Below are positions 11,100 to 58,967 of a DNA stretch of 64,000 bases, piece by piece. The first letter of the stretch is position 1, and every line of letters begins with the position of its first letter. The position numbers and the translations under genes are program-made. The stretch is from a virus. The DNA lies in the UHGV virus genome UHGV-0038492. One strand, given 5' to 3'. Under the pieces are notes generated by a model. It worked only from the letters and a program-made list of their open reading frames with translations, was not told where the DNA came from and did no database searches.

Positions 11100-12035
11100 A
11101 TGGCATTCCCGAATATGCTCGCTATGTTGTTGCCGAGCTTTGAAGCAACAAACTTGAAAAACCAGCTTTCGTCCAACTGCGATGCAATTGGCGAACAACT
11201 TTTACCACGTTTCCAGTCTTTACAAGAACTGGTAGCGTCGAAAGAAGGCAAACCGTTTAAATCGAAAACGGTACAAGAAATATCCGATGAAGTGGTTAAC
11301 TACCTGCGGACTTCCGGTCTGGAAGCCAAAGGTCTCCGCAATCCATCGATGTTAGAGTACATCGTTTCCTCGATGGAAAACGTGTTGCAGTTGCGTTCTT
11401 TCTTAGACCAATGTATTGCGCGTGACATTGGTAAATCGTTAGTCACGTCTTCAATGACGTTTAATAAATTAACGGTGCTCAGACTGCTTGACCTGATTGA
11501 TTTCTTCACAGGTTACAGTGCTACGTTACTTAACTACGTTACCGCAGAAGAGATTGCCGCTGTTGAAGGCTCGAATATTGAAGTGAAGGGCATCGGTCCG
11601 AATGACCTTCAATACCTCAATACTCGTTCGGTCTCTTACTGCATCGCCATCCGTGTTTTGGCAACGCCGGTAAATAAACTGAAAGCGGATTATGCCGAAA
11701 TCCCAGAAGCGATTTTCAACGACGAAACTTACGGTGAGTTGGTTCAGCAGTTCGGTTCGGGCTCGACTGACCCGCTGGGAATGAGCAGTGTACCGTTCCC
11801 GATCTCACTGATACTTCGCGTTCGTTTGAATATTGCTGAAAGGCAGATGGATAAATACGACGAGTGTGTAGAAGCAGCGAAAGCTGCGGAGTTGCGTATC
11901 CTGCTTTACAAAAAGCAAGTAGCGGAAGGTAAGGGAGATGCGCATATCGAAAAACTCATCGAGCTAAGTGAAAAGCATCTGTTGGAACTCAAGCATAAGC
12001 GTGAGCGTCTTGAGAAGAAATACGGTTTAGTGTAA
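11100..12035 (+). CDS. hypothetical protein (311 aa)
   Basis: ORF with RBS aaggggtaagg before ATG 11100. Confidence 0.6.
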   Translation: MAFPNMLAMLLPSFEATNLKNQLSSNCDAIGEQLLPRFQSLQELVASKEGKPFKSKTVQEISDEVVNYLRTSGLEAKGLRNPSMLEYIVSSMENVLQLRSFLDQCIARDIGKSLVTSSMTFNKLTVLRLLDLIDFFTGYSATLLNYVTAEEIAAVEGSNIEVKGIGPNDLQYLNTRSVSYCIAIRVLATPVNKLKADYAEIPEAIFNDETYGELVQQFGSGSTDPLGMSSVPFPISLILRVRLNIAERQMDKYDECVEAAKAAELRILLYKKQVAEGKGDAHIEKLIELSEKHLLELKHKRERLEKKYGLV

Positions 12036-12052
12036 ACCGTTAGGAGAGCCTC

Positions 12053-12613
12053 ATGTTTGAGCACGATAGTCCCGATTTTAATGTGGCCGTAGAGCGCATT
12101 AAAACCTATATGTCGATTTTATCAAAAAACCCAATCGACACACACGATGACGAGCTTATTCACAAAACGCTGGAAGCGTGTGCGGTTATATTGCCGTATT
12201 TTCGTCTGTTCGCTGCTGACTCTGTGCAGCAGGTATTATATGACGAATATCCGCAGGTCGGATTTACCTTTAATACGTTTTATAACGAAAGCGTAGCCTT
12301 CCTGCTTGATGGTAAACGACGCACCGTGACGTTAGGACAGTGGTCCGTATTGCTGTCGTCGTACATGAATGATGTTCGCAATACGAAGAACGTTGAACAG
12401 ACGGGCTCATTGGGTGCACGTCTTCTTGCTGCTGCGTTTGGTCGCCGGGGTACTGTACGTAATATGGGTTCCGCTCACCAGTCTGTTGAGTGTAGCAAAC
12501 GTCTTTTATCTTATGCAGACCATGAACTGCTGGCACGCTGGATGACACGCCCGAACGGGTTGTCCGACATGATCTCGTCGTTAGCAGTGTTTTTGAAAAT
12601 CGCACGTCCCTAA
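12053..12613 (+). CDS. hypothetical protein (186 aa)
   Basis: ORF with RBS aggagag before ATG 12053. Confidence 0.6.
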   Translation: MFEHDSPDFNVAVERIKTYMSILSKNPIDTHDDELIHKTLEACAVILPYFRLFAADSVQQVLYDEYPQVGFTFNTFYNESVAFLLDGKRRTVTLGQWSVLLSSYMNDVRNTKNVEQTGSLGARLLAAAFGRRGTVRNMGSAHQSVECSKRLLSYADHELLARWMTRPNGLSDMISSLAVFLKIARP

Positions 12614-12672
12614 GGGGGCCCCTCATTCTAGGGGCGTGTAATTGGGTTATATAACCAAAGGAAATAAACGAA

Positions 12673-13944
12673 ATGGCAAATTTCGCAAAAACTCGCGCCG
12701 CTCGTGAATCAATGGAAGCGGCCGATGAAGTAATCGACGGTATCAGCAACGTTGAACCGGCAGAAGAGAACCTGGACGTCCAGCTTGCAGAAGTAGCCTC
12801 TATGGATGGTGAACTGGATCAGCTGGAAACTGACGGTGAAACTTTGGCCGCCGATACTGAGCGTACTGAAGACGCTATCGATCAGGCGGAAGAAGCCGTT
12901 GCTAACGGTGAAGAAATGCCGGAAGAAGCGGTTGCCCTGCACGAAGTGGCCCAGGAATCCATCGCACGTCGTTGGTGCCTGGAACGTACCAAACTGGCTC
13001 GTGAATCCTATCGCCGTGGCCGTGGCATGACTGCTGCTGCGCAGGAAGGCTGGAAAGAAACCCTGAAAGATCTTTACGATCGTTTCATTCAGTTCTGTAA
13101 AGAAGTGATTGCGAAGATCAAAGACCTGAAACTGAAATATTTCAACGTCGGTAAGACCGCACAGAAACGTGCGAAGAAATATCAGGAAATGCTGCGTAAG
13201 CTGGGCAAACAGAAGAAAGATGAAATCTCTGGTGGCTTTATCACCAAGCTGTCGATCGAAGGTAAATTCGATGCTGCTGGCTCTATCGCTATTGCGAAAG
13301 AAGTTACCGCTGGCAAAGCTAAAGGTTCCATCAGTGTTCTGGAAAAACAAGCTGGTGAAGCTGTGACCGCTGTGAGCAAAGGTGACGACGACGCATTCAA
13401 AGCAATGCGTGGCGATCAGCCGGTAGAACTGTTTGGTAAAGCGGCTTCTAAACTGCACACTCTGCCGAACTTTGAAAAAGGTGATGCGTCCAAACTGCTG
13501 GCTCTGCCGGGCAACGCATACGTTCAGGCTGGTACTAAAGAACTGGCTGGCGGTCACAAGTTCACTGCAATTGCATTCATGAGCACCGGTGACGCGTCTG
13601 AAGATAAAGACGTGAAAACTCCGTCCGTTTCTGAAATGGCTGGCGCTGCTTCTGCTCTGGAAGCAATCGGTAAAGGCTTCGAAGCTGTACTGAAAGATTT
13701 CCGTGCTTATGACGCTGAAATCGTGAAGCTGCAACAGGCTGCTGAGAAAGCTGCTACCGCACTGAATACCGAAAAAGACCAGAGCAAGTGGGATGGCCTG
13801 CGTAATGCACGTCAAGCTGCTGATTGGTCTGTGAAGAACTACCAGACCCTGAACCGCGCCGTTAGCTATGTTGCTAACACCGTTATTAGCGGTCTGAACG
13901 GCTACCTGGGTGCTGGTATCGGTGCTTACGAAAAATCTAAATAA
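12673..13944 (+). CDS. abundant protein, paralog A of tandem pair (putative high-copy virion/head internal protein with acidic N-terminal region)
   Basis: Strong RBS aaggaaa; codon usage strongly biased (ctg, cgt, ggt, aaa, gaa); shares N-terminus MANF.K..ARESME, core RKLGKQKKDEISGGFI and C-terminus GLNGY..AGI.AYEK with the next gene. Confidence 0.55.
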   Translation: MANFAKTRAARESMEAADEVIDGISNVEPAEENLDVQLAEVASMDGELDQLETDGETLAADTERTEDAIDQAEEAVANGEEMPEEAVALHEVAQESIARRWCLERTKLARESYRRGRGMTAAAQEGWKETLKDLYDRFIQFCKEVIAKIKDLKLKYFNVGKTAQKRAKKYQEMLRKLGKQKKDEISGGFITKLSIEGKFDAAGSIAIAKEVTAGKAKGSISVLEKQAGEAVTAVSKGDDDAFKAMRGDQPVELFGKAASKLHTLPNFEKGDASKLLALPGNAYVQAGTKELAGGHKFTAIAFMSTGDASEDKDVKTPSVSEMAGAASALEAIGKGFEAVLKDFRAYDAEIVKLQQAAEKAATALNTEKDQSKWDGLRNARQAADWSVKNYQTLNRAVSYVANTVISGLNGYLGAGIGAYEKSK

Positions 13945-14026
13945 TCATTTAGATTCGTAGTTCCGTACAGTTCTTGAAATAAATCATCAGGGGAACAACG
14001 CGTTCCCCTTAGAGGAAAAGCTTAAA

Positions 14027-15292
14027 ATGGCGAATTTCTACAAAAACAAAATTGCTCGTGAGTCTATGGAGTCTACTTCTACTGTAGTTCCAGACGGCAT
14101 CGAACTGCCAGCAGAATCTGTAGAAGGTACTCTGGCCGATATCGAGCATGACACCAAACCGATCGAAGCAATGGACGCAGACGCAGAGCTGCTGGCCGAA
14201 GACGGCGACGAAACCGATGCTCAGCTGGAAGTCCTGGACGAAGCTCAGGCTGCTGCTGACGGTGAAGGCGCTGAAGACGGCGAAGAGCCGATGGACGCTG
14301 AAGAAGACATGCCGGACGACGCTGCTAAAGCGCTGGACGTTGCTCAGGAATCCATCCGTTCTCGCTGGAACTTCGAACACCGTTCTTCTGTTGCTCACGA
14401 ATCCTACGGTTCTCGTAACCGCCGTCAGGTTGCTCGTGAATCCCTGTGGGAAGACATTAAAGCCTTCATGAAACGTATCCTTGATTGGCTGAAAGAACAG
14501 GGTCGTAAGATCAAAGATCGTTGGCTGAAATTCCACAACCAGGGTAAATCTATCCAGGCGCGTGCGAAGAAAAACGACGCAATTATCCGTAAGCTGGGCA
14601 AACAGAAGAAAGATGAAATCTCTGGTGGTTTCATTAAATCTCTGTCCATCGACGGTAAGTTCGTTGGTGACGACTCCACGAAACTGAAAGGTATTCTGAC
14701 CCAGGTTTCCAGCTTCTATAGCTCTAAAATGCCTTCTATGGCTGCTAAAGCCTCTGCCATGGTTGAAGATGTTACTAAAGGTAACGGCGCTAAGATTGAA
14801 AACCTGAAAGCCGAGTTCGGTGAACTGGCTAAACAAGATAATCTTAAGAACTTCAAGCTCGGTAACATGGCTGTTAAGTCTGAGTACGATAACGAAGGCG
14901 GTTTCTCCACTACCTTCGTTGAGTCTGAAAACACCGTTGAAACCAGCGTGAAAACTCCGTCTGTTGGCGATCTGGCTAAACTCAATGCCTTCTTCAACGA
15001 AGTGGGTAAACAGATTGAGAAGAACGTTCAGGATTATCGTAAAGTTGAAAGCGCACGTAAGTCTTTCGAAGACAGCATCGATAAGCTGCTGAAAGAAATC
15101 GACAAAGTTAAGATCGATGAAAAACCGGAACTGACCGAAAACGTGCGTCGCGCTCGTCGTTACGTTACCAGTGTTAACCAGGCTCTGTCTCTGGGTGAGA
15201 AAGTTATTGCTTCTACTCAGAAACATCTGGCTAACGGTCTGAACGGTTATATCTCAGCAGGTATTGCCGCTTACGAAAAGACTAAAGCTTAA
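14027..15292 (+). CDS. abundant protein, paralog B of tandem pair
   Basis: Same features as paralog A; 41 nt identical to 13195-13235 at 14588-14628; acidic N-terminal region; terminator follows. Confidence 0.55.
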   Translation: MANFYKNKIARESMESTSTVVPDGIELPAESVEGTLADIEHDTKPIEAMDADAELLAEDGDETDAQLEVLDEAQAAADGEGAEDGEEPMDAEEDMPDDAAKALDVAQESIRSRWNFEHRSSVAHESYGSRNRRQVARESLWEDIKAFMKRILDWLKEQGRKIKDRWLKFHNQGKSIQARAKKNDAIIRKLGKQKKDEISGGFIKSLSIDGKFVGDDSTKLKGILTQVSSFYSSKMPSMAAKASAMVEDVTKGNGAKIENLKAEFGELAKQDNLKNFKLGNMAVKSEYDNEGGFSTTFVESENTVETSVKTPSVGDLAKLNAFFNEVGKQIEKNVQDYRKVESARKSFEDSIDKLLKEIDKVKIDEKPELTENVRRARRYVTSVNQALSLGEKVIASTQKHLANGLNGYISAGIAAYEKTKA

Positions 15293-15307
15293 CTGAACAG
15301 TTAGGCA

Positions 15308-15355
15308 AGAGAACCACCCTGTAATGGGGTGGTTCTCCCTTTTCTTTTTTTTTCG
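15308..15355 (+). terminator. Rho-independent terminator
   Basis: Stem agagaaccaccc / ggggtggttctc followed by ccttttcttttttttt. Confidence 0.8.
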
Positions 15356-15366
15356 ATTAAAAATAA

Positions 15367-15408
15367 TCTCAGATAGATATTACCTTAGTGAGATTACGCT
15401 GTAATCTT
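15367..15408 (+). promoter_or_regulatory. conserved promoter-like element copy 1 (AT-rich box TATATTAC-like + palindrome)
   Basis: tctcAGATAGATATTACCTTAGTGAGATTACgctGTAATCt; one of five related copies, each 20-40 nt upstream of an ATG with SD. Confidence 0.5.
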
Positions 15409-15443
15409 TTAACGACCTGTTTATTACGTTTAGGAGAATTATC

Positions 15444-15620
15444 ATGAACCGCTTCCAATCCAAGAAAGAATTCCAGACAACCGAAGACATGGTGGTCACT
15501 GTGGAAACACCAACCACTGATGTCGTTTGCTTAGTGACACCCATCATAGCGCACAAGAGAAAAGAAGTTTCTCAGTGCCCAGAGGTTCGGGCAGTAAAAC
15601 GTTTTATTAAAGCGCTATAA
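15444..15620 (+). CDS. small hypothetical protein (58 aa)
   Basis: RBS taggaga 7 nt before ATG; first ORF after promoter-like element; weak terminator follows. Confidence 0.4.
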   Translation: MNRFQSKKEFQTTEDMVVTVETPTTDVVCLVTPIIAHKRKEVSQCPEVRAVKRFIKAL

Positions 15621-15625
15621 TTGCT

Positions 15626-15654
15626 AAGCCCTTCGTAGAGGGCATTATTTTTTC
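15626..15654 (+). terminator. weak terminator-like hairpin + T-run
   Basis: Short stem gccct / agggc then attattttttc. Confidence 0.4.
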
Positions 15655-15673
15655 GACCTTTAGGAGAATAGAA

Positions 15674-16225
15674 ATGAACAAATTTAATATCTTAGACGCT
15701 AAAATCGTATCCGAGTCTTCTATTCAGCAAGAAATCTTTCGTGTTCAGTTCGGTGAGAAAGTTCTGAATATTCCGCGCCCAGTTATGATTGGCTTAGCGA
15801 TATTCGTTAACAACAGTCATTGCAACGGTTCGGCGTTGTCAGTTCTTGAGTACGGTAACTATCAGTTCTATATTCCAGAACACCTCGAGTATAACCGTTT
15901 TATTGAACTTAAACCGTTCTATAAGTTCATGCTTGATGCAGGGTATTCGATTCTAACCAAAACGTATATTCGTGACTACTCGAAGTTAGAATCTTTCTAT
16001 CGTGCCCGTGGTTTTCGTGTCCCACAACCGTTTGACGGATACCAGACACGTGTTGTGTTAACTGCACCGTTAACGAAAGAACTGGCTTCCTACAAACTGG
16101 ATATCGAGCAGAAACTGCTGCGTGACGACTTACTGAAAATCTATAACCAGTTGTCCGTGGTTCCTTCTTCAACTATCTCGAACATTGAACCAGAATACGG
16201 AATAAGACAATACATGGAAGGTTAA
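15674..16225 (+). CDS. hypothetical protein (183 aa)
   Basis: RBS taggagaa before ATG 15674. Confidence 0.6.
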   Translation: MNKFNILDAKIVSESSIQQEIFRVQFGEKVLNIPRPVMIGLAIFVNNSHCNGSALSVLEYGNYQFYIPEHLEYNRFIELKPFYKFMLDAGYSILTKTYIRDYSKLESFYRARGFRVPQPFDGYQTRVVLTAPLTKELASYKLDIEQKLLRDDLLKIYNQLSVVPSSTISNIEPEYGIRQYMEG

Positions 16226-27054: not shown

Positions 27055-29340
27055 ATGAAAGATACCCGAATCTCTAATTTAGAGAAACTCGTAGAAGCCG
27101 GTACTAGTCTGGCCCAAAACGTCATCGGCAACAACACCGCCAGCGAAATGTGGAATACGATTGTTGCAGGCGAGTCCGTACGCAGCAACGCAAAAGTGTT
27201 TGGCGTTCTGCGTGACGAAGCATCACAGCACTATGCCAACGCTTTTGGTGGCAAGAAAATGTCTCATGCTGCGACTGTCGCCTCCGCAATGATTCTGGGT
27301 GCAGCTAACCACGGTAAAGACCTGCAAGAACGTGTTGCCCAGGAATACGCTAAGCCGGAATTCCACACCAAGTATAACCTGGATATTGGTATCCCTGGTG
27401 CGCAAGGTGGTGACTGGGGTCGTGAGCGCATGGTTGTTGCTCAGGAATATTACAGCAACAAAGACTACGACAAAAACCTGGGCCTGACCTGGACCCTGAA
27501 CGTACGTGCTCTGGAAACTCAGTCCAAGTTTGCTGAAACGCTGTTCCCGACCATTACCGTTGACACCAACGATGTTGGTATTACCGTACGTACTAAAGTG
27601 ACTACCGTTTCTCGCGGTATCATGAACGCGCTGCTGAGCAAAGACGTGGTTGAAGACCATCGTCGTCCGCTGCACAACGCACTGACTGACCACACCGTTC
27701 TCCAGGACGAAGCGATCAACATCGTTCCTTACGTAATGGAAACCGGTGAAAACCAGGAATACTTCGTAAGCGAAGAACTGGTTCCGAACGAAAAAGTTCG
27801 CCTGGGTCGTGTACCTCCGTACCCGACTAACTACCTGAGCTTTGCAAACGACACGCTGAACCTGTTCCAGCTGTCTGCGCATCCGGGTATCGTTCAGGAA
27901 GGTTACGATGAAACTGATGAAATCGCACCGGGTTGTGCTCTGGGCAGCCTGCTGATTTCTGTACGTAAACCTGCCGAAGAAGCGAAAGCAGGTAAATTCA
28001 TCAAACTACACGTTCGTGACATGCAGTTCGCAACCTTCCAGCGTCCTGCTGAAGGTGACGGCCGTGAACTGGTTCTGCAATTCCGTCGTACCGCGTTCTC
28101 TCTGAATGCGAAAACCACTGACTGGAAAGGCGACGCTATTCCGGCTCTGCAAGCACTGGGTCAGAACTCCTACACCCTGCGCTACGTTATCACCATCACC
28201 ATGTCCCTGTTCACCAGCGGCCAGTTCGGTGGTAAAGTAGACATTTCCGGCCACAAACTGGAAATCGAAGGTCTGTACGATGCAACTGGTAACAAAGTTG
28301 ATACCAAGTCTGGTACCGGTAAAGTTATCCTGGACGGCCTGAAACTCGAACTGATGGGCTGGCGCTTCGATGGTACTCGTACCAACGAAAACCGTCGTAC
28401 CCAGGGTCTGCTGCTTGACCCAATTTGGGAACAGGAAAACTACAAACTGCAATACGGTTCTCCGATTCTGACCAAGTCTCCGGTTGGTGTTGAATACGAC
28501 GACACTGAACGTCTGGACGACCTGATCTCTGCGGTGAACATCCGTAACGAACAGCTGGCTATTACTCAGACGCTGTCTTACACTGAAGCAGTACGTAACG
28601 CAGCCGCTGCGATGATCACTCCGTGGGACAAACCGGCTATCCGTGGTCTGGGCCGTCACTGGGTTGCTCCGTGGTTCAAAGAGTCTGACTACAAAGTCGA
28701 TGAAGTTGTTCAGTCTCTGGATACCAAAGAAGCGCTGATCAACGCTCGTCAGGGTCTGTTGCAGCGTATCGGTAGCCAGGTAACTCAGGCTATCCAGGAT
28801 TCTCGTTTCATTCCTGCACTGCGCCTGCTGACCGCTGATCCGGACATTCTGCCGAAAGTTATCATCGCAACTGACGAACCGACTGCATCTATGCTGCTGC
28901 TGGTTCAGGGCGACCAACGTCTGCTGGGCGACCGTTATGAATACGAAGTCGTTACCACCAACGATGACCGCTGGCGTATCTACAACGCAGCTGACGATTC
29001 CTGGACTCGTCGTCTGCAATGGTTCCTGAAAGTTCCGACTGCGGACGATGGTTCCTACTGCGTACTGAACTGGGGTAACCACTTCTGGTCTCCGATCATG
29101 GTTACCAACATCAACATCCAGCGTAACGGTTCTACTTCTAAAGAACTGGCTGTACAGCCGCGTAACGCGCATATCTGCCACTGCCCGATCACTGGTCTGA
29201 TTTGGGTTAAAGGCATCACCAAACTGGTTGAAGAAAAACTGGCTTACAACGTTTCTGTAGAACAGAACGGCCAGAAACAAACCGACGGTGGTGTAGCAGG
29301 TAATGTTGCTGGCGACGGTAAAGACAAAGCTGGTAAATAA
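27055..29340 (+). CDS. major capsid protein (phiKZ-like jumbo phage type), putative
   Basis: 761 aa (~83 kDa) ORF with RBS aagg, the strongest codon bias in the window, strong terminator after it; size and composition fit my recollection of phiKZ/SPN3US-type capsid proteins; no search run. Confidence 0.6.
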   Translation: MKDTRISNLEKLVEAGTSLAQNVIGNNTASEMWNTIVAGESVRSNAKVFGVLRDEASQHYANAFGGKKMSHAATVASAMILGAANHGKDLQERVAQEYAKPEFHTKYNLDIGIPGAQGGDWGRERMVVAQEYYSNKDYDKNLGLTWTLNVRALETQSKFAETLFPTITVDTNDVGITVRTKVTTVSRGIMNALLSKDVVEDHRRPLHNALTDHTVLQDEAINIVPYVMETGENQEYFVSEELVPNEKVRLGRVPPYPTNYLSFANDTLNLFQLSAHPGIVQEGYDETDEIAPGCALGSLLISVRKPAEEAKAGKFIKLHVRDMQFATFQRPAEGDGRELVLQFRRTAFSLNAKTTDWKGDAIPALQALGQNSYTLRYVITITMSLFTSGQFGGKVDISGHKLEIEGLYDATGNKVDTKSGTGKVILDGLKLELMGWRFDGTRTNENRRTQGLLLDPIWEQENYKLQYGSPILTKSPVGVEYDDTERLDDLISAVNIRNEQLAITQTLSYTEAVRNAAAAMITPWDKPAIRGLGRHWVAPWFKESDYKVDEVVQSLDTKEALINARQGLLQRIGSQVTQAIQDSRFIPALRLLTADPDILPKVIIATDEPTASMLLLVQGDQRLLGDRYEYEVVTTNDDRWRIYNAADDSWTRRLQWFLKVPTADDGSYCVLNWGNHFWSPIMVTNINIQRNGSTSKELAVQPRNAHICHCPITGLIWVKGITKLVEEKLAYNVSVEQNGQKQTDGGVAGNVAGDGKDKAGK

Positions 29341-49637: not shown

Positions 49638-49676
49638 TACCCCTACCTTCGGGTAGGGGATTATTTAATTTTTTCT
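49638..49676 (+). terminator. Rho-independent terminator
   Basis: Stem acccctacc / ggtagggg with loop ttcg, then attatttaatttttt. Confidence 0.8.
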
Positions 49677-49717
49677 CAGATATATATTACCTTAGTGAGA
49701 TTACACAGTAATCTCTT
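49677..49717 (+). promoter_or_regulatory. conserved promoter-like element copy 4
   Basis: tcAGATATATATTACCTTAGTGAGATTACacaGTAATCTC with perfect 8 bp inverted repeat GAGATTAC/GTAATCTC. Confidence 0.5.
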
Positions 49718-49750
49718 TACGACTTGTTCTACAGATTAGGATTAAATATC

Positions 49751-50901: not shown

Positions 50902-51888
50902 ATGGTATATCGTAAAACGATAGAAAGAACCTCTTCTGATTTAACCGTAGGACGCTTAACCCGTAGAGATATTCGCAATCCTCAGCTTCAGGCATGTTTA
51001 ACGGGGCCTAACGGTGCGGTGATTCGAGAAGCACTGTGTAATACCGAGCTGAATACGTTCTCTTTACAAAAAGGAAAAACAATCCAAGGGTTTATCATCA
51101 CAAAACACATTTACGGCGACCCAACGTTACACTGCTTGTATATGCACGAAATTGTACCTGGGTGTTTGAACAAACTGAGCCTTCTATTGGTACTTGACTA
51201 TACGGGTTTTACGTACCTTAACCGAATTGCCAGAGGTGTGGAAGAAATCGCCGAGCTTAACGATTTAGGGTTTAGACATACCCACACAGCATATCGTTTA
51301 GGTACACGTAAGTTACTGGATGTCACTTTACCGACGAACGTGAAGAACGTCTCCGACGACTTCTATAAAGACTTAACCGGAGCACAACGTGAACAGCTTA
51401 TGATGTTGCTTGGCACTAGCGTCGTTGAAAACATCAATGCTGACCCTGTAACGCGTTCTCGACAAATAATGCCACAAGTTGAAACATTGGTGGAATTAGT
51501 GCGGCACGTCAATCACTACACTTACGTTTGGATGGACGGTAATGACGTTGTGGGTGTGGTGCAAGTTAAATCACGCAATCTTAGCGAGTGCGAACTAAAA
51601 GCCATTGCGGTAAGTGAAACACACCGGGGCCGTGGGATTGGGCGTGCGTTGTTGTACCGTGCTTTACAGATTGCATCGACAACAGCGGCACCATTAGAAA
51701 TAGGGTGTTACAATAACAACCCAGCATTTAGACACCTGGCCGTAGATTTGTTTAAATTCCGTCCCTACGAGTACGAATTTGTTTTAGTGCGCGACGACGA
51801 TGTCGTCAGTTGGGAGCGTCGGAAAAACCGCGTCGAGTTAGTGTTAGGCGACGAAATGTCATCGTTACAAGGCGGAATTAATGCATAA
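50902..51888 (+). CDS. GNAT-domain protein (328 aa; acetyltransferase fold in C-terminal half)
   Basis: RBS aaggag before ATG; C-terminal half carries VGVVQV...IAVSETHRGRGIGRALLYRA motif; N-terminal half unassigned. Confidence 0.55.
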   Translation: MVYRKTIERTSSDLTVGRLTRRDIRNPQLQACLTGPNGAVIREALCNTELNTFSLQKGKTIQGFIITKHIYGDPTLHCLYMHEIVPGCLNKLSLLLVLDYTGFTYLNRIARGVEEIAELNDLGFRHTHTAYRLGTRKLLDVTLPTNVKNVSDDFYKDLTGAQREQLMMLLGTSVVENINADPVTRSRQIMPQVETLVELVRHVNHYTYVWMDGNDVVGVVQVKSRNLSECELKAIAVSETHRGRGIGRALLYRALQIASTTAAPLEIGCYNNNPAFRHLAVDLFKFRPYEYEFVLVRDDDVVSWERRKNRVELVLGDEMSSLQGGINA

Positions 51889-52696
51889 ACCAATTATAAA
51901 GTGGATGGGTGGCAAATCGCGGATTATCGACACCTTACTACAAGTCTTACCTGAACGTACCACTTTCGTTGAACCGTTTGTTGGCGCAGGGTCAGTGTTT
52001 TTGAACACACGTTATAAACGTTACATTCTTGCTGACTCTAACCCTGACTTAATCCAGTTGCTGAATGTAGCGAAAGACCAACCTGAAGAACTTATCTTGA
52101 AGTCGAAACCGCTATTCGAAGACGGTAACGATTGTATTAAGTATATGGAGAGACGAGAACTGTTTAATCGCGAAACGGATATGGCTCCGTTAGACCGGGC
52201 AGCAATGTTTCTGTACTTAATGCGTCACGGTTTTAACGGGATGTGTCGTTACAACGGCAGCGGGGGTTTTAACGTTCCGTTTGGTCGCTATCCTAACGGT
52301 GTGTATTACCCGTTAGAAGAGATTCGTGGTTGGGCTAAACGTTGTCAAGAACCGGAATACTTAGAAATTGTTTGTGAAGATTTCCGAACAGTTTTAGAGC
52401 GTACGCCGGAAGACAGTGTGATTTACGCAGACCCACCGTATATACCGCTCTCAGAGACCGCTAAACACGCGCAATACCATCGGAAGGAGTTTTCCCAGGC
52501 CGACCATCGGGAACTCGCCAGAGCGCTGTTTAAGCAGGTTGAGAAGGGGAATAGCGTTGTGTTGTCCAATGCGGATACGTTACTAACGCGTGAGATTTAT
52601 TACGGGTTCGAATGGCGTTCTGTGGAAGTTGGCCGATACATGGGTGCGTCAGGTGCTGCTCGTAAAACGGTAACGGAATTGTTAGGAGTGCTCTAA
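51881..52696 (+). CDS. dam: DNA adenine methyltransferase (Dam-like, N6-adenine)
   Basis: WMGGKSR, VEPFVGAGSVFLNT, YILADSNPDLI and catalytic DPPY motifs in Dam order; closely parallels E. coli Dam. Confidence 0.93.
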   Translation: MHKPIIKWMGGKSRIIDTLLQVLPERTTFVEPFVGAGSVFLNTRYKRYILADSNPDLIQLLNVAKDQPEELILKSKPLFEDGNDCIKYMERRELFNRETDMAPLDRAAMFLYLMRHGFNGMCRYNGSGGFNVPFGRYPNGVYYPLEEIRGWAKRCQEPEYLEIVCEDFRTVLERTPEDSVIYADPPYIPLSETAKHAQYHRKEFSQADHRELARALFKQVEKGNSVVLSNADTLLTREIYYGFEWRSVEVGRYMGASGAARKTVTELLGVL

Positions 52697-53469
52697 TGCG
52701 TATAGTGGATATCCACGATTATCGTAATGACCATTTAGCGATTGGTGTAGAAGGTAAGATGGTTTCGTTAACCCGTGTACGCAAAGGGTTAATGGAAAAG
52801 GAGATCATTCGGGAGTCCGAAGACCCTACCTTTATCATCCTTTCGAACACTAATCAGTTACAGGGCATCTTTTCAGGGCGTGCTGACGGTAAGATTTTCT
52901 ATATGTCCGCAATCGTTGTGTTTGCGAAGAAGAACATCAACTTTGCCCAACTCAAACGTTTGTTAAACGTGAAGATGTTTGATGTCACCTACCCTGCTAA
53001 TGACCTAAAACGTCGTGATCAGTTAATGGCGTTTTTGGGTATGCAGCCAACGTCAATCGATTATGACCTTACGATTACTGAAAAGCCGGAAGTACGTACT
53101 GACTTACCTGACGTGGTCGACGTTGAATCCCTAACGTTAGAAGAGACGTTTACGATTCCTAAGGTTGTTAATGTCAACCTGGACACGCACTGTTTAGGGT
53201 TGTTAGCCGTAGGTGCAGCAGAAGGGTTGTGTTGTCGTAAAGACGGTAAGGTTGAAGGAATCTTAGTCTATTCGAAAATCAACGAAAAGACGTTTGCCAC
53301 CGAAGGCTTTTTCTATAACGACTGTACTTACGGAAACGCACTACTAACCACGTATTTCCGTATTGCTTATCTGAAAGGCGCAACTGTACGCCTCACGTTT
53401 CCATACACAGCTCCACCGTCTATGGGTGGAGTTGAGGTAGAACCATTAACCGGCCACTTTATCTTTTAA
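52696..53469 (+). CDS. hypothetical protein (257 aa)
   Basis: Coupled start (TAATG) directly after dam. Confidence 0.6.
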   Translation: MRIVDIHDYRNDHLAIGVEGKMVSLTRVRKGLMEKEIIRESEDPTFIILSNTNQLQGIFSGRADGKIFYMSAIVVFAKKNINFAQLKRLLNVKMFDVTYPANDLKRRDQLMAFLGMQPTSIDYDLTITEKPEVRTDLPDVVDVESLTLEETFTIPKVVNVNLDTHCLGLLAVGAAEGLCCRKDGKVEGILVYSKINEKTFATEGFFYNDCTYGNALLTTYFRIAYLKGATVRLTFPYTAPPSMGGVEVEPLTGHFIF

Positions 53470-53478
53470 GGATGATGA

Positions 53479-53706
53479 ATGGAAATCAAACGTATTGTAA
53501 CCAAAAACAAACAGATTGTTTACGTCGCAGGTGATAACGAATTCTCGGCGGTAATCAACAGCGAAAATGTGCTCGTTATCGGTTATCCGGGTAAAGTTAT
53601 TACGCGCAGTCACCAACGTGTGATTGACAAACTTATCGCAAAAGCGAAAGCGCGTGACGGTGTTGGTTCAGTACAAACCCACACGGGGTTAACGCTGGCC
53701 CTCTAG
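53479..53706 (+). CDS. hypothetical protein (75 aa)
   Basis: RBS aaggatg before ATG 53479. Confidence 0.5.
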   Translation: MEIKRIVTKNKQIVYVAGDNEFSAVINSENVLVIGYPGKVITRSHQRVIDKLIAKAKARDGVGSVQTHTGLTLAL

Positions 53707-53745
53707 TCAGCAGGTAATATGACCTCTTAACTGGAGACTTTAATA

Positions 53746-54252
53746 ATGAGTGAGACTCTGGATTTTAATCAGCTCGAACAACACGATTTCGACCTCGGTG
53801 TTCGTGATATCGATGCTGATCATGAAACACGTTGTAAAGAGCTGTTTAACCGTTACGGTCAGCTCATCACCGGTGCCTCTGATGACACCGAATTCAGTTT
53901 AGATGAGTTTGAAAAAGTTCTGTCGTGTTTTATCACTGACTGTCTGGCGAAGAAAGCGTTGCTGGTCGAACTGAACTTAGACTCCGTCGAACCTACTGAT
54001 GCCCATGCGGTGTTGAAAGAATCCATTATCCCAACTGATGAGATTATGGACACTGTCGCAGGTATTCGCGGTACGTTTGAAACTGCCGTAGAAGAATACA
54101 CGGAACAGCTTCGTGAATCAGGACTGACGTTGTGTGCGCCAGCAGGTGAGCCTTTACCGTCCGACGAAGAAACTGAAGAAGCGCGTAGTCGCTTAGCGCG
54201 TTATGTTATTACGTCTATCTTGGTAGATGATCGCGAAGAGAATCTGCTATAA
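53746..54252 (+). CDS. highly acidic hypothetical protein (168 aa)
   Basis: RBS tggagac; composition rich in Asp/Glu (net charge roughly -20 by eye); terminator follows. Confidence 0.6.
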   Translation: MSETLDFNQLEQHDFDLGVRDIDADHETRCKELFNRYGQLITGASDDTEFSLDEFEKVLSCFITDCLAKKALLVELNLDSVEPTDAHAVLKESIIPTDEIMDTVAGIRGTFETAVEEYTEQLRESGLTLCAPAGEPLPSDEETEEARSRLARYVITSILVDDREENLL

Positions 54253-54254
54253 GC

Positions 54255-54295
54255 TGCCCCTCTCTCCGTTTGGAGAGAGGGTGTATTTATTTTTA
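54255..54295 (+). terminator. Rho-independent terminator
   Basis: Stem cccctctctcc / ggagagaggg with loop gttt, then gtatttattttt. Confidence 0.8.
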
Positions 54296-54350
54296 CGCGT
54301 ATAGCCGTAGTTATGCACAAGTAAACAAAATTAATTGAGGAAACAATCTG

Positions 54351-54668
54351 ATGTGGTTAAGTGCTATTCACCGTGATTTGCCAAAACGTGAAGTGTCGTT
54401 TACTGTTGAGGACGCACCGATTGAGGTAGGCGTCGCGAAATTCGAAAGAATCGAAGAAGGGCAGTTTGTTGTAATGGATGACAACGACAACGAATTTATG
54501 TTGTTCCATCCGGAAGTTGACACGTCTGAAATTTGTGACGGTGTTCTTTTGTTGTCTTGGCAAAACCCTGAAACCAAAGAATGGATGTGGTGTGTTGCTA
54601 AACCGACAAATGAAGCCGAAACTGCATACGTGTTTGGGGAAATTTATGTCGAGCCAGAACCGCACTAA
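54351..54668 (+). CDS. hypothetical protein (105 aa)
   Basis: RBS gaggaaa before ATG 54351. Confidence 0.55.
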   Translation: MWLSAIHRDLPKREVSFTVEDAPIEVGVAKFERIEEGQFVVMDDNDNEFMLFHPEVDTSEICDGVLLLSWQNPETKEWMWCVAKPTNEAETAYVFGEIYVEPEPH

Positions 54669-54957
54669 TACTGATGAGTCCAATATACAGCGCTTGCAAC
54701 GGGCACTAACTGCGCCTCTAGGCGGCGAGATTCACGATCGTTGGGTAATTGCGAGGGTGGTAGAGATTGATTATTCTCAGGGACAGTTAATGTTAAATAA
54801 CTGCTCGACGAACGTGCCTTTCACGTTACCGCGCGATATATTCCGTCTTACGCCCAACGTTGATGAAATACTGACAATTGACAGGAAACTTCTATCGATA
54901 GAACTTCAGCATTTCCCCCTGCCTGGTAAGTCGGTTAACATTGCTTTGTCCAGTTAA
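54655..54957 (+). CDS. hypothetical protein (100 aa)
   Basis: ATG 54655 with RBS gggga 5 nt upstream, overlapping upstream gene by 14 nt (track start 54478 rejected). Confidence 0.45.
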   Translation, partial: QNRTNTDESNIQRLQRALTAPLGGEIHDRWVIARVVEIDYSQGQLMLNNCSTNVPFTLPRDIFRLTPNVDEILTIDRKLLSIELQHFPLPGKSVNIALSS

Positions 54958-54970
54958 CGGTCTAAAAAAT

Positions 54971-55004
54971 TTAAGATATATTTCATCTATGTGAGAATTC
55001 TCAC
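54971..55004 (+). promoter_or_regulatory. conserved promoter-like element copy 5 (variant)
   Basis: ttaAGATATATTTCATCTATGTGAGAATTCTCAC with perfect palindrome GTGAGAATTCTCAC. Confidence 0.4.
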
Positions 55005-55027
55005 TTAACTAAATGGAGTAATCTAAA

Positions 55028-55297
55028 ATGGCTAAGATTTACATTGTTGAAAAACGTTCAGGTAATGTTATTTCTTATCACGAAGAAGGTAAACCTGAAA
55101 AAGTTAAAACACTCAAGCTTGAAGGTTTTGATGTGAAAAGCCTGCGTAAAGGCGTGAAGATTACTTTCAAAGGTTTGATTCGTGCAGGTAACTTACACAT
55201 CATCAAAACAGATGGAACGATGGTTGCGTTAGCACCGGCTACCGCTGCGAAAACGACAGCCGGTCGTGGTTGCTACGGCAGCAGTCGTAAGTTTTAA
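55028..55297 (+). CDS. hypothetical small basic protein (89 aa)
   Basis: RBS tggag before ATG; between promoter-like element and terminator. Confidence 0.55.
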   Translation: MAKIYIVEKRSGNVISYHEEGKPEKVKTLKLEGFDVKSLRKGVKITFKGLIRAGNLHIIKTDGTMVALAPATAAKTTAGRGCYGSSRKF

Positions 55298-55301
55298 GCA
55301 G

Positions 55302-55342
55302 TGCCCCTCTCTCCGCTAGGAGAGAGGGTACTTTTATTTTTC
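55302..55342 (+). terminator. Rho-independent terminator (near-duplicate of 54255-54295)
   Basis: Stem cccctctctcc / ggagagaggg with loop gcta, then tacttttattttt. Confidence 0.8.
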
Positions 55343-55355
55343 TTCGAGGTGTGTG

Positions 55356-55844
55356 ATGACAACGGTATTAGTAACAAAGGATTACATTTTAGCCGATCGG
55401 TTGGTTGATTACGGCGGTACAGTTAAAGAGCTTCCTAAATTACACAAATACAAAAACAAATTCGTTGTTTACACTGGGGAACGTGTATTGGACTCTGATC
55501 TCTGGAAAACGATGATAATGTCCGCAGCAGAAAAATATTTAATTGAAGAAAAGCGAACTAAGGTTGAAGGGATATTTAAAGATCTTATCGAAAAAGAACG
55601 ACTTTTCGATCAGGTTATTATTTTTACAGCTAAGGAAACGTTTTGGCTAGGGTTGGTAGCAGATAAATTTGAAGCCCACACATTGAATAAAAACACGGTT
55701 TGGACAACGGGTTCAGGTCAAGGTTTTGCTCGAGCAGCATGGGCATCAGGCATAGCCGAAAAGAATATCGTCCCCTTAGTAGGTTCGATCGATACAGCGA
55801 CATCACAGTCTTACGACTTGTTTTACAGGAAGCATTTACGATGA
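55356..55844 (+). CDS. hypothetical protein (162 aa)
   Basis: ATG 55356 with RBS gaggt 5 nt upstream. Confidence 0.55.
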   Translation: MTTVLVTKDYILADRLVDYGGTVKELPKLHKYKNKFVVYTGERVLDSDLWKTMIMSAAEKYLIEEKRTKVEGIFKDLIEKERLFDQVIIFTAKETFWLGLVADKFEAHTLNKNTVWTTGSGQGFARAAWASGIAEKNIVPLVGSIDTATSQSYDLFYRKHLR

Positions 55845-56362
55845 AAATAAATGCGGTTTTAATTGGCGAAGAAATATTCGTGAATACAAAAACACAATAC
55901 TTGTGCTACGAAGGCATTACTGTAATAGATGACTATTACGGTAAGTACGGTTGGTGGATTCCGTCACCTAACTCTTTGCGATTAGAAGAAGCAATAACTG
56001 CCGAAGAAAACAAACTGGATGATGAATGGACTTATATCAGCTCCGTAATTGACGTTAGCGGACGAATTAAAGACGTCTTCTGGGCTAAAGGTATAGGGTG
56101 GCGTGTTACGCTACATCAAGCCACACCGGTAAGATTGTTGTACGACCACACTGACACTTCGGAGTTAGCGTTTACCATTGAGACGCTCTCAGTGCGTAAA
56201 GATTTAGATAACGTAGGTAAAGGGAAGTGGTCGATTGAACGTATAGAGGAAATTCTCAGTCACTTTAAAGCCAACAACCAATTTAAACGTTGGTGTACGC
56301 TACCTGAGTTAGTAGAAGAGTTGAAAAAGCGGGATTGCAAGCCGCTACCTTTTAATCCGTAA
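55841..56362 (+). CDS. hypothetical protein (173 aa)
   Basis: ATGA start/stop overlap with upstream gene (track start 55700 rejected as too overlapping). Confidence 0.5.
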   Translation: MKINAVLIGEEIFVNTKTQYLCYEGITVIDDYYGKYGWWIPSPNSLRLEEAITAEENKLDDEWTYISSVIDVSGRIKDVFWAKGIGWRVTLHQATPVRLLYDHTDTSELAFTIETLSVRKDLDNVGKGKWSIERIEEILSHFKANNQFKRWCTLPELVEELKKRDCKPLPFNP

Positions 56363-56406
56363 CTTTTTACGAATGCAGCTATTTTAATGATTAGGAGAAT
56401 ATAGAG

Positions 56407-56802
56407 ATGACAGCAATACTAGGTGTAATGGCAAGAAAAGCCGACATCATTGAAACGTTTATTGAGCAATACAACAACTCGCCGTATACGCGTTTTAGAT
56501 TACATAAACCGAAGAATAGTACAGAATGGGTTCGCTGGTTCAGGATTTGGGATAAAACAATAAGTAAAATTGATCCGTTATTTAGAATAACGGTTGAACC
56601 TGCTTATTGGATTGTAATGGAAATTTCGCTATTACGTATTATCGAAAAACGTCCGATTGACACTATGACGATGTTTGGGAAAGATACGTATAAAATGTTG
56701 ACCAATGGTTTTGTGGGTAATGGGGAACACACGTTGTATCAGGCGATGCTGGAAATGTGTTTGTTCGATTTAGTTACTTACGAATTGGGGATTTCAAAAT
56801 GA
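56407..56802 (+). CDS. hypothetical protein (131 aa)
   Basis: RBS aggagaatatagag before ATG 56407. Confidence 0.55.
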   Translation: MTAILGVMARKADIIETFIEQYNNSPYTRFRLHKPKNSTEWVRWFRIWDKTISKIDPLFRITVEPAYWIVMEISLLRIIEKRPIDTMTMFGKDTYKMLTNGFVGNGEHTLYQAMLEMCLFDLVTYELGISK

Positions 56803-57263
56803 ATTGCTTCGAATCTAAAGAAATTGTTGAGTTGTTTAAGCAACGTGAGAAAACAACATTCCGTGACCTGTACGATTCCGATTACCGTCCTCTGTTTGCG
56901 GTATTGTTGAAACTGGATAAAGAACCCGAAATCGCACTAGCAGAAGTTCAGCATCATCACATCAGTTTCGTGTTAACTGAAAACAAGGAACGTTGGGTAG
57001 ATGACATACTGGGTCGTATTGCGCTTTTGGAAACGCCGCATCGCTGGGAAGTGGTTATTCAGAAATCGTTGTTCCCGCGTGAAGACATTTTCAACAATTA
57101 TCGTCCGAAACAGTATTACAACCACGACGGGTCACCAAAACGTGCTTTTCTGGCACCCCAGCATTTCGTAACCTACGTAACGTTGCGTTACAAAGACACC
57201 GTGGTACCGTTTGACACCTACCTGGAAATGCGTGAGATAATTTTAGGGAAGAATCCAACATGA
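56799..57263 (+). CDS. hypothetical protein (154 aa)
   Basis: ATGA overlap with upstream gene; start at MNCFES. Confidence 0.5.
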   Translation: MNCFESKEIVELFKQREKTTFRDLYDSDYRPLFAVLLKLDKEPEIALAEVQHHHISFVLTENKERWVDDILGRIALLETPHRWEVVIQKSLFPREDIFNNYRPKQYYNHDGSPKRAFLAPQHFVTYVTLRYKDTVVPFDTYLEMREIILGKNPT

Positions 57264-57742
57264 TTCAATTTTCTGTTGACGCAGAAAGACTGGCGTCGTT
57301 TAAAGAACGTGCTCAGTCTGCAACTAAAAACGGCTATATCGAGAAAGGTGTTCGTGATACCTGTAAACTAATTAACGACCATCCGCACCTGGCGACAATG
57401 TGGAGCTGTGAAGGTCACGGTATGTATTCTAAGTCACCTGGAAATCTGCATATCGTTTTTGCAACAGACGCTATTGGAAGTCAGATTCCAATGCAGGTTA
57501 TGTCCGAACTTGCAAAATCGGATTTACCTAATTTTTGGAATCTTAGTTTGTGTCGTCTTTATATACCAGATTCATACACGGATTTGGTATATCTTGAACC
57601 TGACTATGGGCTAAACACCGACGACACGTCTTACTGGGCTTGGAAAATCGGATACATGTGCTTGATTAATCGGCCAGCATTAATTGAGACACGTCAAGCT
57701 CTTTACAAAGCATTTCACACAGTATTAGTTGAGAATAAATAA
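57260..57742 (+). CDS. hypothetical protein (160 aa)
   Basis: ATGA overlap with upstream gene. Confidence 0.55.
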   Translation: MIQFSVDAERLASFKERAQSATKNGYIEKGVRDTCKLINDHPHLATMWSCEGHGMYSKSPGNLHIVFATDAIGSQIPMQVMSELAKSDLPNFWNLSLCRLYIPDSYTDLVYLEPDYGLNTDDTSYWAWKIGYMCLINRPALIETRQALYKAFHTVLVENK

Positions 57743-58434
57743 TGGCTACCAAACAAAAGAAACCTCGTAACAAAAAGTATAACCCGAAAGCGGCTGCTAA
57801 CCGTACTGCGCACACCATTGCTGAAAATGCGCTAAACCGTATTACTTTCGTCGGTAGCTCTATTCGTCCTATTGGTCCGTACGCAGGCCGTGGTTTCCAG
57901 TTCACAACGTCACCGCGTATGCGCATGGCAGCGACTGATATGTTAATCGGTGGTTTGTTTGACGAACCACGTAACTGGAAACTCTGGGTTGCGCATCTGT
58001 ACGAAACGGATAATGGTGTACAAGCAGAAACCGTCGTGGCAACGCTTGACGACTACACGTTAAGTGACTTCTGTCAACACGGCGACAAAATCATCAAGTC
58101 GTTACGTGAGACAGAAGAAAACTACTTCGGTTACGCTTTCGTTGCTGCACCTAACGAACGCTATGATTTCGACCAGGGAGAAGAACGCTTACTGGAAAAC
58201 TTCATGCATTCTGGACTGTTAGACAAATCCTTACACTTACCTGAAGAAGAACTGATGGTTTCGCGTAAGGATATGGTAACGTTGCTGTTAGCCGACCGTG
58301 GTCGTTTTGATATCACCGAGCCACATGTACGTAAGGTACAGAAACTCGTGGATAAGGTAGACGAAACTGACCTGGACACTAATGAAGTCGCAACGCGTAT
58401 TCAAAGTGTAGTAAACCAGATTGAGGATTACTAA
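57742..58434 (+). CDS. hypothetical protein (230 aa) with basic N-terminus
   Basis: TAATG overlap with upstream gene; N-terminal KQKKPRNKKYNPK. Confidence 0.6.
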   Translation: MATKQKKPRNKKYNPKAAANRTAHTIAENALNRITFVGSSIRPIGPYAGRGFQFTTSPRMRMAATDMLIGGLFDEPRNWKLWVAHLYETDNGVQAETVVATLDDYTLSDFCQHGDKIIKSLRETEENYFGYAFVAAPNERYDFDQGEERLLENFMHSGLLDKSLHLPEEELMVSRKDMVTLLLADRGRFDITEPHVRKVQKLVDKVDETDLDTNEVATRIQSVVNQIEDY

Positions 58435-58436
58435 AC

Positions 58437-58967
58437 GTGATAGCACGACTTGTGGGTTGGTTTAAGCAACGTCGTGCAAAGGCGGTCGAATGGCCGCCTA
58501 TTACGCATGACGAGAAAGTGGCTCTTTTTTTGGGGTATAACAAAGACTTGGGGAGATTAGGCGAGTTAATGCACTTAACGGAACGCCAGGTTTTTGCTAA
58601 GATTTCGAGCAGCGAGTTGCGTAAAGAAGTAATTCCCCACCTATCCTTTTTAGGGCAGGTTTATGCAAAGACGACAGAGGAATTTTTATCAACCCAAGGT
58701 AGCGAACGGCCACATATTCGGTTTTCCGTCGTAGGTGAACCTGATACGGTAGGTGAAATCGATTTTAAGATGCTGTATCGCAGAATAAAAGATGATGGGT
58801 TTATACATGTTAAACGATTATCAGAAACTTCTGTGGTGATTTATCATCGCACTGATCAGGATTTGTTAGGGTGTGTTATAAAGCTATCAAATTTACATAG
58901 TTTTTACGTTGATTTACTTACGGACTTTTATCCAGAACCTTGGTGCTTTATAGATGAAAATAAATGA
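58437..58967 (+). CDS. hypothetical protein (176 aa), GTG start
   Basis: GTG 58437 with RBS gagga 9 nt upstream. Confidence 0.5.
   Translation: MIARLVGWFKQRRAKAVEWPPITHDEKVALFLGYNKDLGRLGELMHLTERQVFAKISSSELRKEVIPHLSFLGQVYAKTTEEFLSTQGSERPHIRFSVVGEPDTVGEIDFKMLYRRIKDDGFIHVKRLSETSVVIYHRTDQDLLGCVIKLSNLHSFYVDLLTDFYPEPWCFIDENK

Follow-up and report, generated by a model that had tools for sequence, protein, structure and literature searches.

The closest described counterparts of the locus examined here are gp53 and gp54 of the giant Salmonella phage SPN3US, which together make up 'paralog family A'. Each is present in more than 600 copies per virion, the two are the chief components of the T=1 inner shell of a maturation intermediate, and both are ejected into the host (PMC5694885; PMC10052503; PMC7552025). 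The prohead protease gp245 cuts both proteins at AXE motifs, with an additional cut at ARE-12 (PMC5694885; PMC10052503; PMC7552025). The mature N-terminus of gp53 is (E-125)GWKETLK, at the mapped maturation cleavage (E)GWKETLKDLFER, and that of gp54 follows E-137, (E)SLWDDIK (PMC10052503). The first 15 residues, which are identical in gp53 and gp54, have been likened to the capsid targeting sequences (CTS) of T4 (Ali et al., 2017; PMC5694885). We analysed a 64,000-nucleotide (nt) stretch of the virus genome UHGV-0038492 (the window), in which two tandem genes, P1 and P2 (paralogs 1 and 2), are orthologs of gp53 and gp54 and share a 41-nt block of perfect nucleotide identity. This block is very probably the product of a short interlocus (ectopic) gene conversion in the recent ancestor of one small uncultured clade. 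General treatments of such conversion between tandem paralogs are available (PMC10503786; PMC3966223).

Profile hidden Markov models place both proteins in the phiKZ-like internal head proteins, PF12699 (phiKZ_IP; P1, 245.3 bits; P2, 197.2 bits; curated gathering cutoff 27), with profile positions 2–387 of 387 covered, and both match phrog_2497 'internal head protein' (E values of 1.2e-147 for P1 and 5.4e-117 for P2). The gene order in the window matches positions 50907–58689 of SPN3US, with a PhiKZ_gp91-like gene upstream and a DHFR gene downstream of the pair; gp53 (53606–54883) is syntenic with P1 and gp54 (54961–56220) with P2, the lengths are similar, and P1 is 69% identical to its counterpart in amino acid (aa) sequence. 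The tandem pair is also found in Seoulvirus, Erskinevirus, Machinavirus, Derbicusvirus and uncultured relatives, where P1 and P2 were assigned by alignment. Because all pairs align into two clean ortholog groups, one-to-one with gp53 and gp54 over 23 genomes, the duplication is ancient and predates these genera. P1 and P2 are accordingly diverged, with 33% amino acid and 49% nucleotide identity overall. The initial annotation had described two diverged paralogs of about 420 residues with common motifs, and the lengths (Table 1) and all of the quoted peptides, MANFAKTRAARESME and MANFYKNKIARESME, RKLGKQKKDEISGGFI (in both proteins), and GLNGYLGAGIGAYEK and GLNGYISAGIAAYEK, were located. Its comparison with abundant paralogous head proteins in SPN3US-like jumbo phages is also correct, given the PF12699 membership, the orthology to gp53 and gp54 and the documented abundance of the latter (PMC5694885; PMC10052503). 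The tandem pair thus corresponds to the genes for the major internal head (ejection) proteins in giant phages of the SPN3US type. Copy number and cleavage were measured in SPN3US virions, and we infer the abundance of P1 and P2 in virions of the window phage through orthology. The window phage belongs to an uncultured clade and has no close cultured relative, the DNA identity to any cultured phage being 76–80% across the P1/P2 region and about 83% for the capsid gene.

The two copies of the block are identical over exactly 41 nt, synonymous positions included, as first reported, and the identity cannot be extended by one base on either side. With up to three mismatches allowed, the block occurs at only these two sites in the 64 kb (0 expected). 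A scan of the whole window with 16-nt seeds found only four direct-repeat families, among which the block ranks first as the longest exact direct repeat. The block sits in a 185-nt stretch of 71% P1/P2 identity. Its identity of 41/41 nt against a background of 49% is the excess looked for in a conversion tract, and a Sawyer-type permutation of polymorphic sites gave 0/5000. A second identical patch, of 15 nt (Table 1), is a weak signal; at this VKTPSV motif the P1/P2 patch reaches 19 nt in the relatives L010 and L011.

The block encodes the best conserved motif of the family, RKLGKQKKDEISGG, with L177, G178, K182, S186, G187 and F189 invariant, and the identity could therefore be a matter of chance or convergence, the same conserved peptide being written in the same way under the same codon bias without any exchange of DNA. 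The six invariant residues, the extreme codon bias of both genes and the preferred status of several common codons (CGT, CTG, CAG, GAA, ATC) all speak for this explanation. Nevertheless, even with identical residues and the genes' own codon usage granted, 13 consecutive identical codons have a probability of about 1.2e-3, or 1.6e-3 when calculated from the empirical same-codon rate at identical residues outside the block (0.61). The non-preferred codons AAG, AAG and GAT are also common to both copies. The identity of the peptide is itself derived, there being 2–5 residue differences in the sister lineage and in every distant phage, and none of the other family members with an equal bias has the identity at the site. 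Chance would also leave unexplained the directional changes described below, and we consider it very unlikely.

Close relatives were drawn from IMG/VR and by scanning metagenomes for the block sequence. P1 and P2 are identical over 35–49 nt at the block site in seven independent assemblies (the window, L009, L010, L011, L037, L038 and L039). The sister lineage, L012/L034, has no such identity. Its P1 reads CGC AAG CTG GGC AAA CAA GAT AAA GAC AAC ATT TCT GGC (RKLGKQDKDNISG), which is the paralog-1 type of distant phages, and its P2 already has the block, departing from it once within the 41 nt (AAA for AAG) and once more in the codon that adjoins it. When P1 and P2 of one genome are compared in nine distant phages, their longest exact match measures 13–29 nt and is never at the block site, where P1/P2 identity is 60–75%. 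SPN3US differs from the window in the same way: it has no identical block at the site, and its patches lie at codons 3–10 and 93–99.

Comparison with the sister lineage gives the direction of the event. Window P1 differs from L012 P1 at 9 positions in the block and agrees with P2 at all of them (9/9), compared with 18/97 outside the block. Over the block itself, a single nt separates window P1 from L012 P2, and 9 nt separate it from L012 P1. Over the 40-codon flanks it groups with the P1 orthologs, and the distance between paralogs there is 0.43–0.53. The nearest neighbours therefore sort by genome in the tract and by ortholog in the flanks, the phylogenetic incongruence characteristic of conversion. 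With L012/L034 P1, of ancestral type, as the unconverted outgroup, P2 is most likely the donor and P1 the recipient, this being the most parsimonious direction. The event is placed between the L012/L034 split (P1 synonymous divergence, dS, 0.29) and the time when the seven genomes began to diverge (dS about 0.21). Recent gene conversion had been one of two alternatives in the initial annotation, and the unconverted sister lineage, the 9/9 differences toward the paralog and the confinement of the identity to one clade all argue strongly for it. The relatives are metagenome-assembled contigs, and short repeats can mislead assemblers, so a chimeric or collapsed assembly might in principle have created the identical stretch. 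However, seven independent assemblies, which come from different projects, all have the patch with small private differences, neither reading frame is disrupted and each flank is specific to its paralog. The probability of an assembly artefact is negligible.

Only one site in the block, a synonymous GAA/GAG position, is polymorphic in both paralogs, and its state is the same in P1 and P2 in 7/7 genomes: GAA in both paralogs of the window, L009, L037 and L039, and GAG in both paralogs of L010, L011 and L038. The two paralogs nevertheless have different genealogies: in L039, P1 lies 1.9% from L011 P1 and resembles L011 to either side of the block, and P2 lies about 15% from every other P2. The match at this site despite the discordant genealogies suggests a repeated event, and we put the odds of at least one further homogenising event after the first conversion at about even, the basis being mainly this one synonymous site.

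The other alternative in the initial annotation was selection on the nucleic acid itself, such that the 41 nt would be an RNA or DNA element (such as a structure, an internal start, a site of pausing or processing, or a target of a protein or small RNA) needed by both genes. The identity of the synonymous positions and the matched GAA/GAG state in all seven genomes are what such an element would show, and within P2 the 3' portion of the block can pair with sequence further downstream (z = -2.2). P1, however, lacks this hairpin partner, and folding of the block is worse than that of shuffled sequence both alone (z = +1.0) and in the P1 context (z = +1.4); folding runs of the block alone and in both gene contexts thus gave no stable or shared structure. 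A scan of positions 12000–16000 against Rfam at E<=1 returned 0 matches. Synonymous conservation, which such an element should retain in homolog pairs, does not persist. Beyond the one clade only the 60–75% identity given above is found, synonymous changes occur in the block within the clade (GAG, TCC, CTT, GGC, CGC), and the P1 orthologs of the clade diverge normally there (2 changes observed, 2.2 expected). The out-of-frame ATG in the block is missing from L012 P1 and all distant homologs. An internal start at this ATG, which follows a purine-rich run, or an overlapping open reading frame (65 aa in P1, 13169–13366) was rejected, the ATG being unconserved and the P2 counterpart only about 24 codons long. 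Because synonymous divergence in the relatives is normal, we discard the reading of the block as a nucleic acid signal, which is extremely unlikely.

Among the close relatives (L009–L012, L034, L037–L039), paralog 2 diverges 2–8 times faster than paralog 1; between the window and L009, for example, paralog 2 has diverged by 5.2% and paralog 1 by 0.6%. In the centre of P2 (14672–14956, residues 216–310) dS is about 1.0, compared with 0.35–0.4 in the P2 flanks, which suggests frequent exchange of alleles between phages in this region. This excess, together with the incongruent P1 and P2 genealogies, shows that P2 alleles are clearly exchanged between phages, and the patch in P1 might likewise have come from P1 or P2 of a co-infecting phage and not from its own neighbour. 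The resident P2 is nevertheless the closest known donor (0–1 differences), and the nearest foreign P1 alleles are 5–9 nt off. A donor P2 in a co-infecting relative would still amount to interlocus conversion, merely in trans. We regard recombination between phages as a highly improbable source of the patch.

Interlocus conversion would have proceeded by the non-reciprocal copying of about 40 nt encoding the RKLGKQKKDEISGG motif from P2 to P1. The copy would have replaced the P1 version (RKLGKQDKDNISGG in the sister lineage), changing 2 residues and 5 synonymous positions at once. The route was probably recombination-dependent replication or template switching, inside a single genome or among genomes replicating together; relaxed strand annealing is the other candidate route tolerant of low homology. 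A UvsX homolog has been reported in SPN3US (PMC5694885). The exchange would be tolerated because no crossover occurs, and at least one later round of homogenisation may have followed. Strong codon bias and conservation of the protein do not create the patch, although they make it look cleaner.

Several observations weigh against interlocus conversion or limit what can be drawn from it. Before conversion the paralogs, as represented by L012, had 65% identity in the 129 nt surrounding the block and no perfect run longer than 11 nt, which is short for canonical homologous recombination; because this homology is low, the mechanism would have to tolerate low homology. The ancestral state comes from one sister lineage of two near-identical genomes. 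The clustering of the 9 differences within 41 nt is not significant after correction for scanning (10468/20000), and it is their directionality, not their position, that is informative. Conserved residues and strong codon bias alone give a probability of about 1e-3; with the peptide identical, identity of the nucleotides is therefore not astronomically improbable. The P2 block of the clade is partly paralog-1-like compared with distant phages, and there may have been an earlier exchange in the opposite direction in the deeper history of the pair. A sliding-window scan for such an older P1-to-P2 exchange gave a weak signal (+0.05) at aa 178–187 in all P2 of the clade, and noise in the hypervariable P2 centre is equally large. 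The evidence for repeated conversion, as noted, comes mainly from a single synonymous site.

The case resembles interlocus conversion elsewhere in that a short, non-reciprocal patch lies within diverged paralogs, the patch grouping by genome and the flanks by ortholog, and in that exchange recurs at the most conserved segments. It differs in the setting, very old genes of about 50% identity with 11 nt of prior perfect homology in a lytic giant phage, and in the tract itself, which is unusually short at about 40 nt. Our literature search on gene conversion in giant-phage or phiKZ_IP paralogs found no specific report. The locus is a new example of known things, namely conversion between ancient paralogs of known abundant head proteins.

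Patches of this kind are not confined to the block. A P1/P2 patch of 45–47 nt is present at the 5' end of the genes in L012/L034, in the direction paralog 1 to paralog 2, and 5'-end patches of 23–29 nt are found in SPN3US, SPAsTU, L017, L018 and L025. SPFM19 has a 29-nt patch at AQESIRKRW. These significant lineage-specific patches elsewhere in the family therefore indicate that exchange between the paralogs is recurrent. We compared P1–P2 nucleotide identity within and across genomes over 15 representative phages. In codons 1–15 (12673–12717 and 14027–14071), identity is 0.81 within and 0.67 across genomes (P<5e-5), and in the last 23 codons (13876–13944 and 15221–15292) it is 0.67 and 0.63 (P<5e-5). 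In three control regions identity within genomes does not differ from that across genomes (P 0.12–0.80), and the block region (aa 175–190) behaves in the same way (0.69 and 0.68, P 0.24). The N-terminal peptide and C-terminal tail thus vary between phages and yet match between the paralogs of one phage. Because the excess within genomes is seen at the termini and not in the controls, the comparison indicates that the P1 and P2 termini evolve in concert family-wide; the 41-nt block is a clade-specific event.

As in gp53 and gp54, for which the T4 CTS analogy was drawn, the N-terminal peptide up to ARE-12 and S-x-E-15 is common to both paralogs within a genome. What is new here is that the shared peptide is phage-specific and is matched within a phage down to synonymous sites, and so is not simply conserved; by analogy it is a putative targeting sequence. 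This pattern suggests that the N-terminal signal co-evolves with a phage-specific partner. Tentatively, recurrent micro-conversion could keep gp53/gp54-type paralogs partly in step at functional signals, these being the N-terminal ~15 codons, with their proposed capsid-targeting and first-cleavage peptide, the extreme C-terminus and, in the window's clade, the RKLGKQKK-DEISGG hairpin, although we hold this to be less probable than not.

Further properties of P1 and P2 are shared with gp53 and gp54. The acidic, propeptide-like N-terminal regions noticed initially have low isoelectric points (pI; Table 1) and end at AXE motifs at the same aligned sites as in SPN3US (AQE-125/GWKETLK in P1; ARE/SLW-DIK in P2), leaving predicted mature parts of about 32 kDa that are basic in both systems (pI 9.4 for P1 and 9.5 for P2). 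At the sequence level, the predicted sites AQE-125 (P1), ARE-138 (P2) and ARE-12 (both) coincide with the sites mapped in SPN3US. The codon bias of the pair was correctly said to be like that of the capsid gene. The effective number of codons (Nc) is 31.9 for P1 and 33.6 for P2, and the frequency of optimal codons (Fop) is 0.79 in both, compared with 33.2 and 0.83 for the major head protein gene (27055–29340, phrog_3231) and window medians of 49.6 and 0.51. Fop was calculated with a list of optimal codons, on which Nc does not depend. Only the major head protein gene in the window matches the bias of P1 and P2, which supports the suggestion of very high expression and is indirect support for the predicted high copy number in the virion, and codon bias equal to that of the major capsid gene is likewise a property of the SPN3US pair.

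An AlphaFold2 model built from a 12-sequence alignment has a mean predicted local distance difference test score (pLDDT) of 74.9 and a predicted template modelling score (pTM) of 0.76. In the model, the block lies at the end of a long helix (119–175) and forms, within the mature part of the protein, a small β-hairpin (177–186, pLDDT about 89–91). A search by sequence found no solved structure, and Foldseek against the PDB gave no match at E<=0.001. A pore-forming-toxin fold is not supported, as ClyA-family toxins (NheA, MakB, SmhA, HblL1) appeared only at E>1 and with template modelling (TM) scores below 0.25.

Several elements flank the two genes (Table 1). The GC hairpin without a T-run that had been noted between them was found; it directly adjoins the P2 Shine-Dalgarno sequence, tAGAGGA. 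Over 16 phages its position is kept and its sequence is free, with double compensatory changes in 5/7 pairs. Because the position is kept and the double changes are compensatory, the comparison identifies this stem-loop as a real structural element, and it may be a transcript-stabilising, processing or attenuating hairpin. The element just 5' of P1, ATCGCACGTCCCTAAGGGGGCCCCTcaTTCTAGGGGCGTGTAATT, consists of about 45 nt with a 15-bp hairpin, followed by a conserved palindrome, GGTTATA(TA)ACC. It is near-invariant in 12 phages from at least 4 genera, where the surrounding coding DNA is 20–45% diverged; the window holds no second copy, and Rfam gave no match. It resembles a sequence-specific promoter or a site of processing or binding, placed before the most highly expressed gene pair. 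The palindrome, GGTTATATAACC, was also considered as a repeated promoter motif and rejected: it occurs once in the window, and the region upstream of the capsid gene lacks it.

A 66-nt intergenic repeat is found at 15356–15421 and 49663–49728, the two copies being 83% identical and sharing a 31-nt near-exact core, TCTCAGATAnATATTACCTTAGTGAGATTAC, with short inverted repeats. The first copy lies immediately 3' of the terminator that follows P2. The repeat is a candidate promoter or regulatory site.

Table 1. Positions of P1, P2 and associated features in the 64,000-nt window.
Feature	Position	Strand	Description
Hairpin element just 5' of P1	12598..12656	+	Over the stop codon of the upstream PhiKZ_gp91-like gene; palindrome GGTTATATAACC follows
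P1 (paralog 1)	12673..13944	+	423 aa; predicted phiKZ_IP internal head/ejection protein; SPN3US gp53 ortholog
P1 acidic propeptide (predicted), residues 1–125	12673..13047	+	Ends AQE-125, then GWKETLK; also ARE-12, SME-15; pI 4.2
41-nt block in P1	13195..13235	+	Codons R175 to G188; probable recipient of the conversion tract
Secondary identical patch, 15 nt (VKTPS)	13611..13625 = 14947..14961	+	The run spans 13 polymorphic sites and narrowly exceeds the 99% permutation null
Intergenic GC stem-loop GGGGAAC-AACGC-GTTCCCC	13989..14009	+	Folds as an 8-bp stem; no T-run
P2 (paralog 2)	14027..15292	+	421 aa; predicted phiKZ_IP internal head/ejection protein; SPN3US gp54 ortholog
P2 acidic propeptide (predicted), residues 1–138	14027..14440	+	Ends ARE-138, then SLWEDIK; also ARE-12, SME-15, AHE-125; pI 4.1
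41-nt block in P2	14588..14628	+	Codons R188 to G201; probable donor
Intrinsic terminator after P2	15309..15352	+	Canonical; 13-bp stem then T-run; terminator scan, fold z = -3.4

The analysis removes the block as a tempting false lead, in that it hides no RNA or DNA signal in two very highly expressed phage genes. Ancient, essential genes of giant phages that are about 50% identical still swap patches of roughly 25–50 nt. Such exchange can mislead phylogenies, ratios of nonsynonymous to synonymous divergence (dN/dS) and paralog assignment in PF12699 families, which have 2–7 members per phage. The concerted evolution of the termini provides comparative support for the published idea that the gp53/gp54 N-terminus is a targeting or processing signal and, together with the invariant upstream element, is the part of the locus most worth follow-up. 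If recurrent micro-conversion does operate at these signals, matching signals would be favoured, both proteins meeting the same assembly and processing partners and co-assembling in one inner shell, and the block would be one visible case of a mechanism that co-ordinates two essential co-assembling virion proteins.

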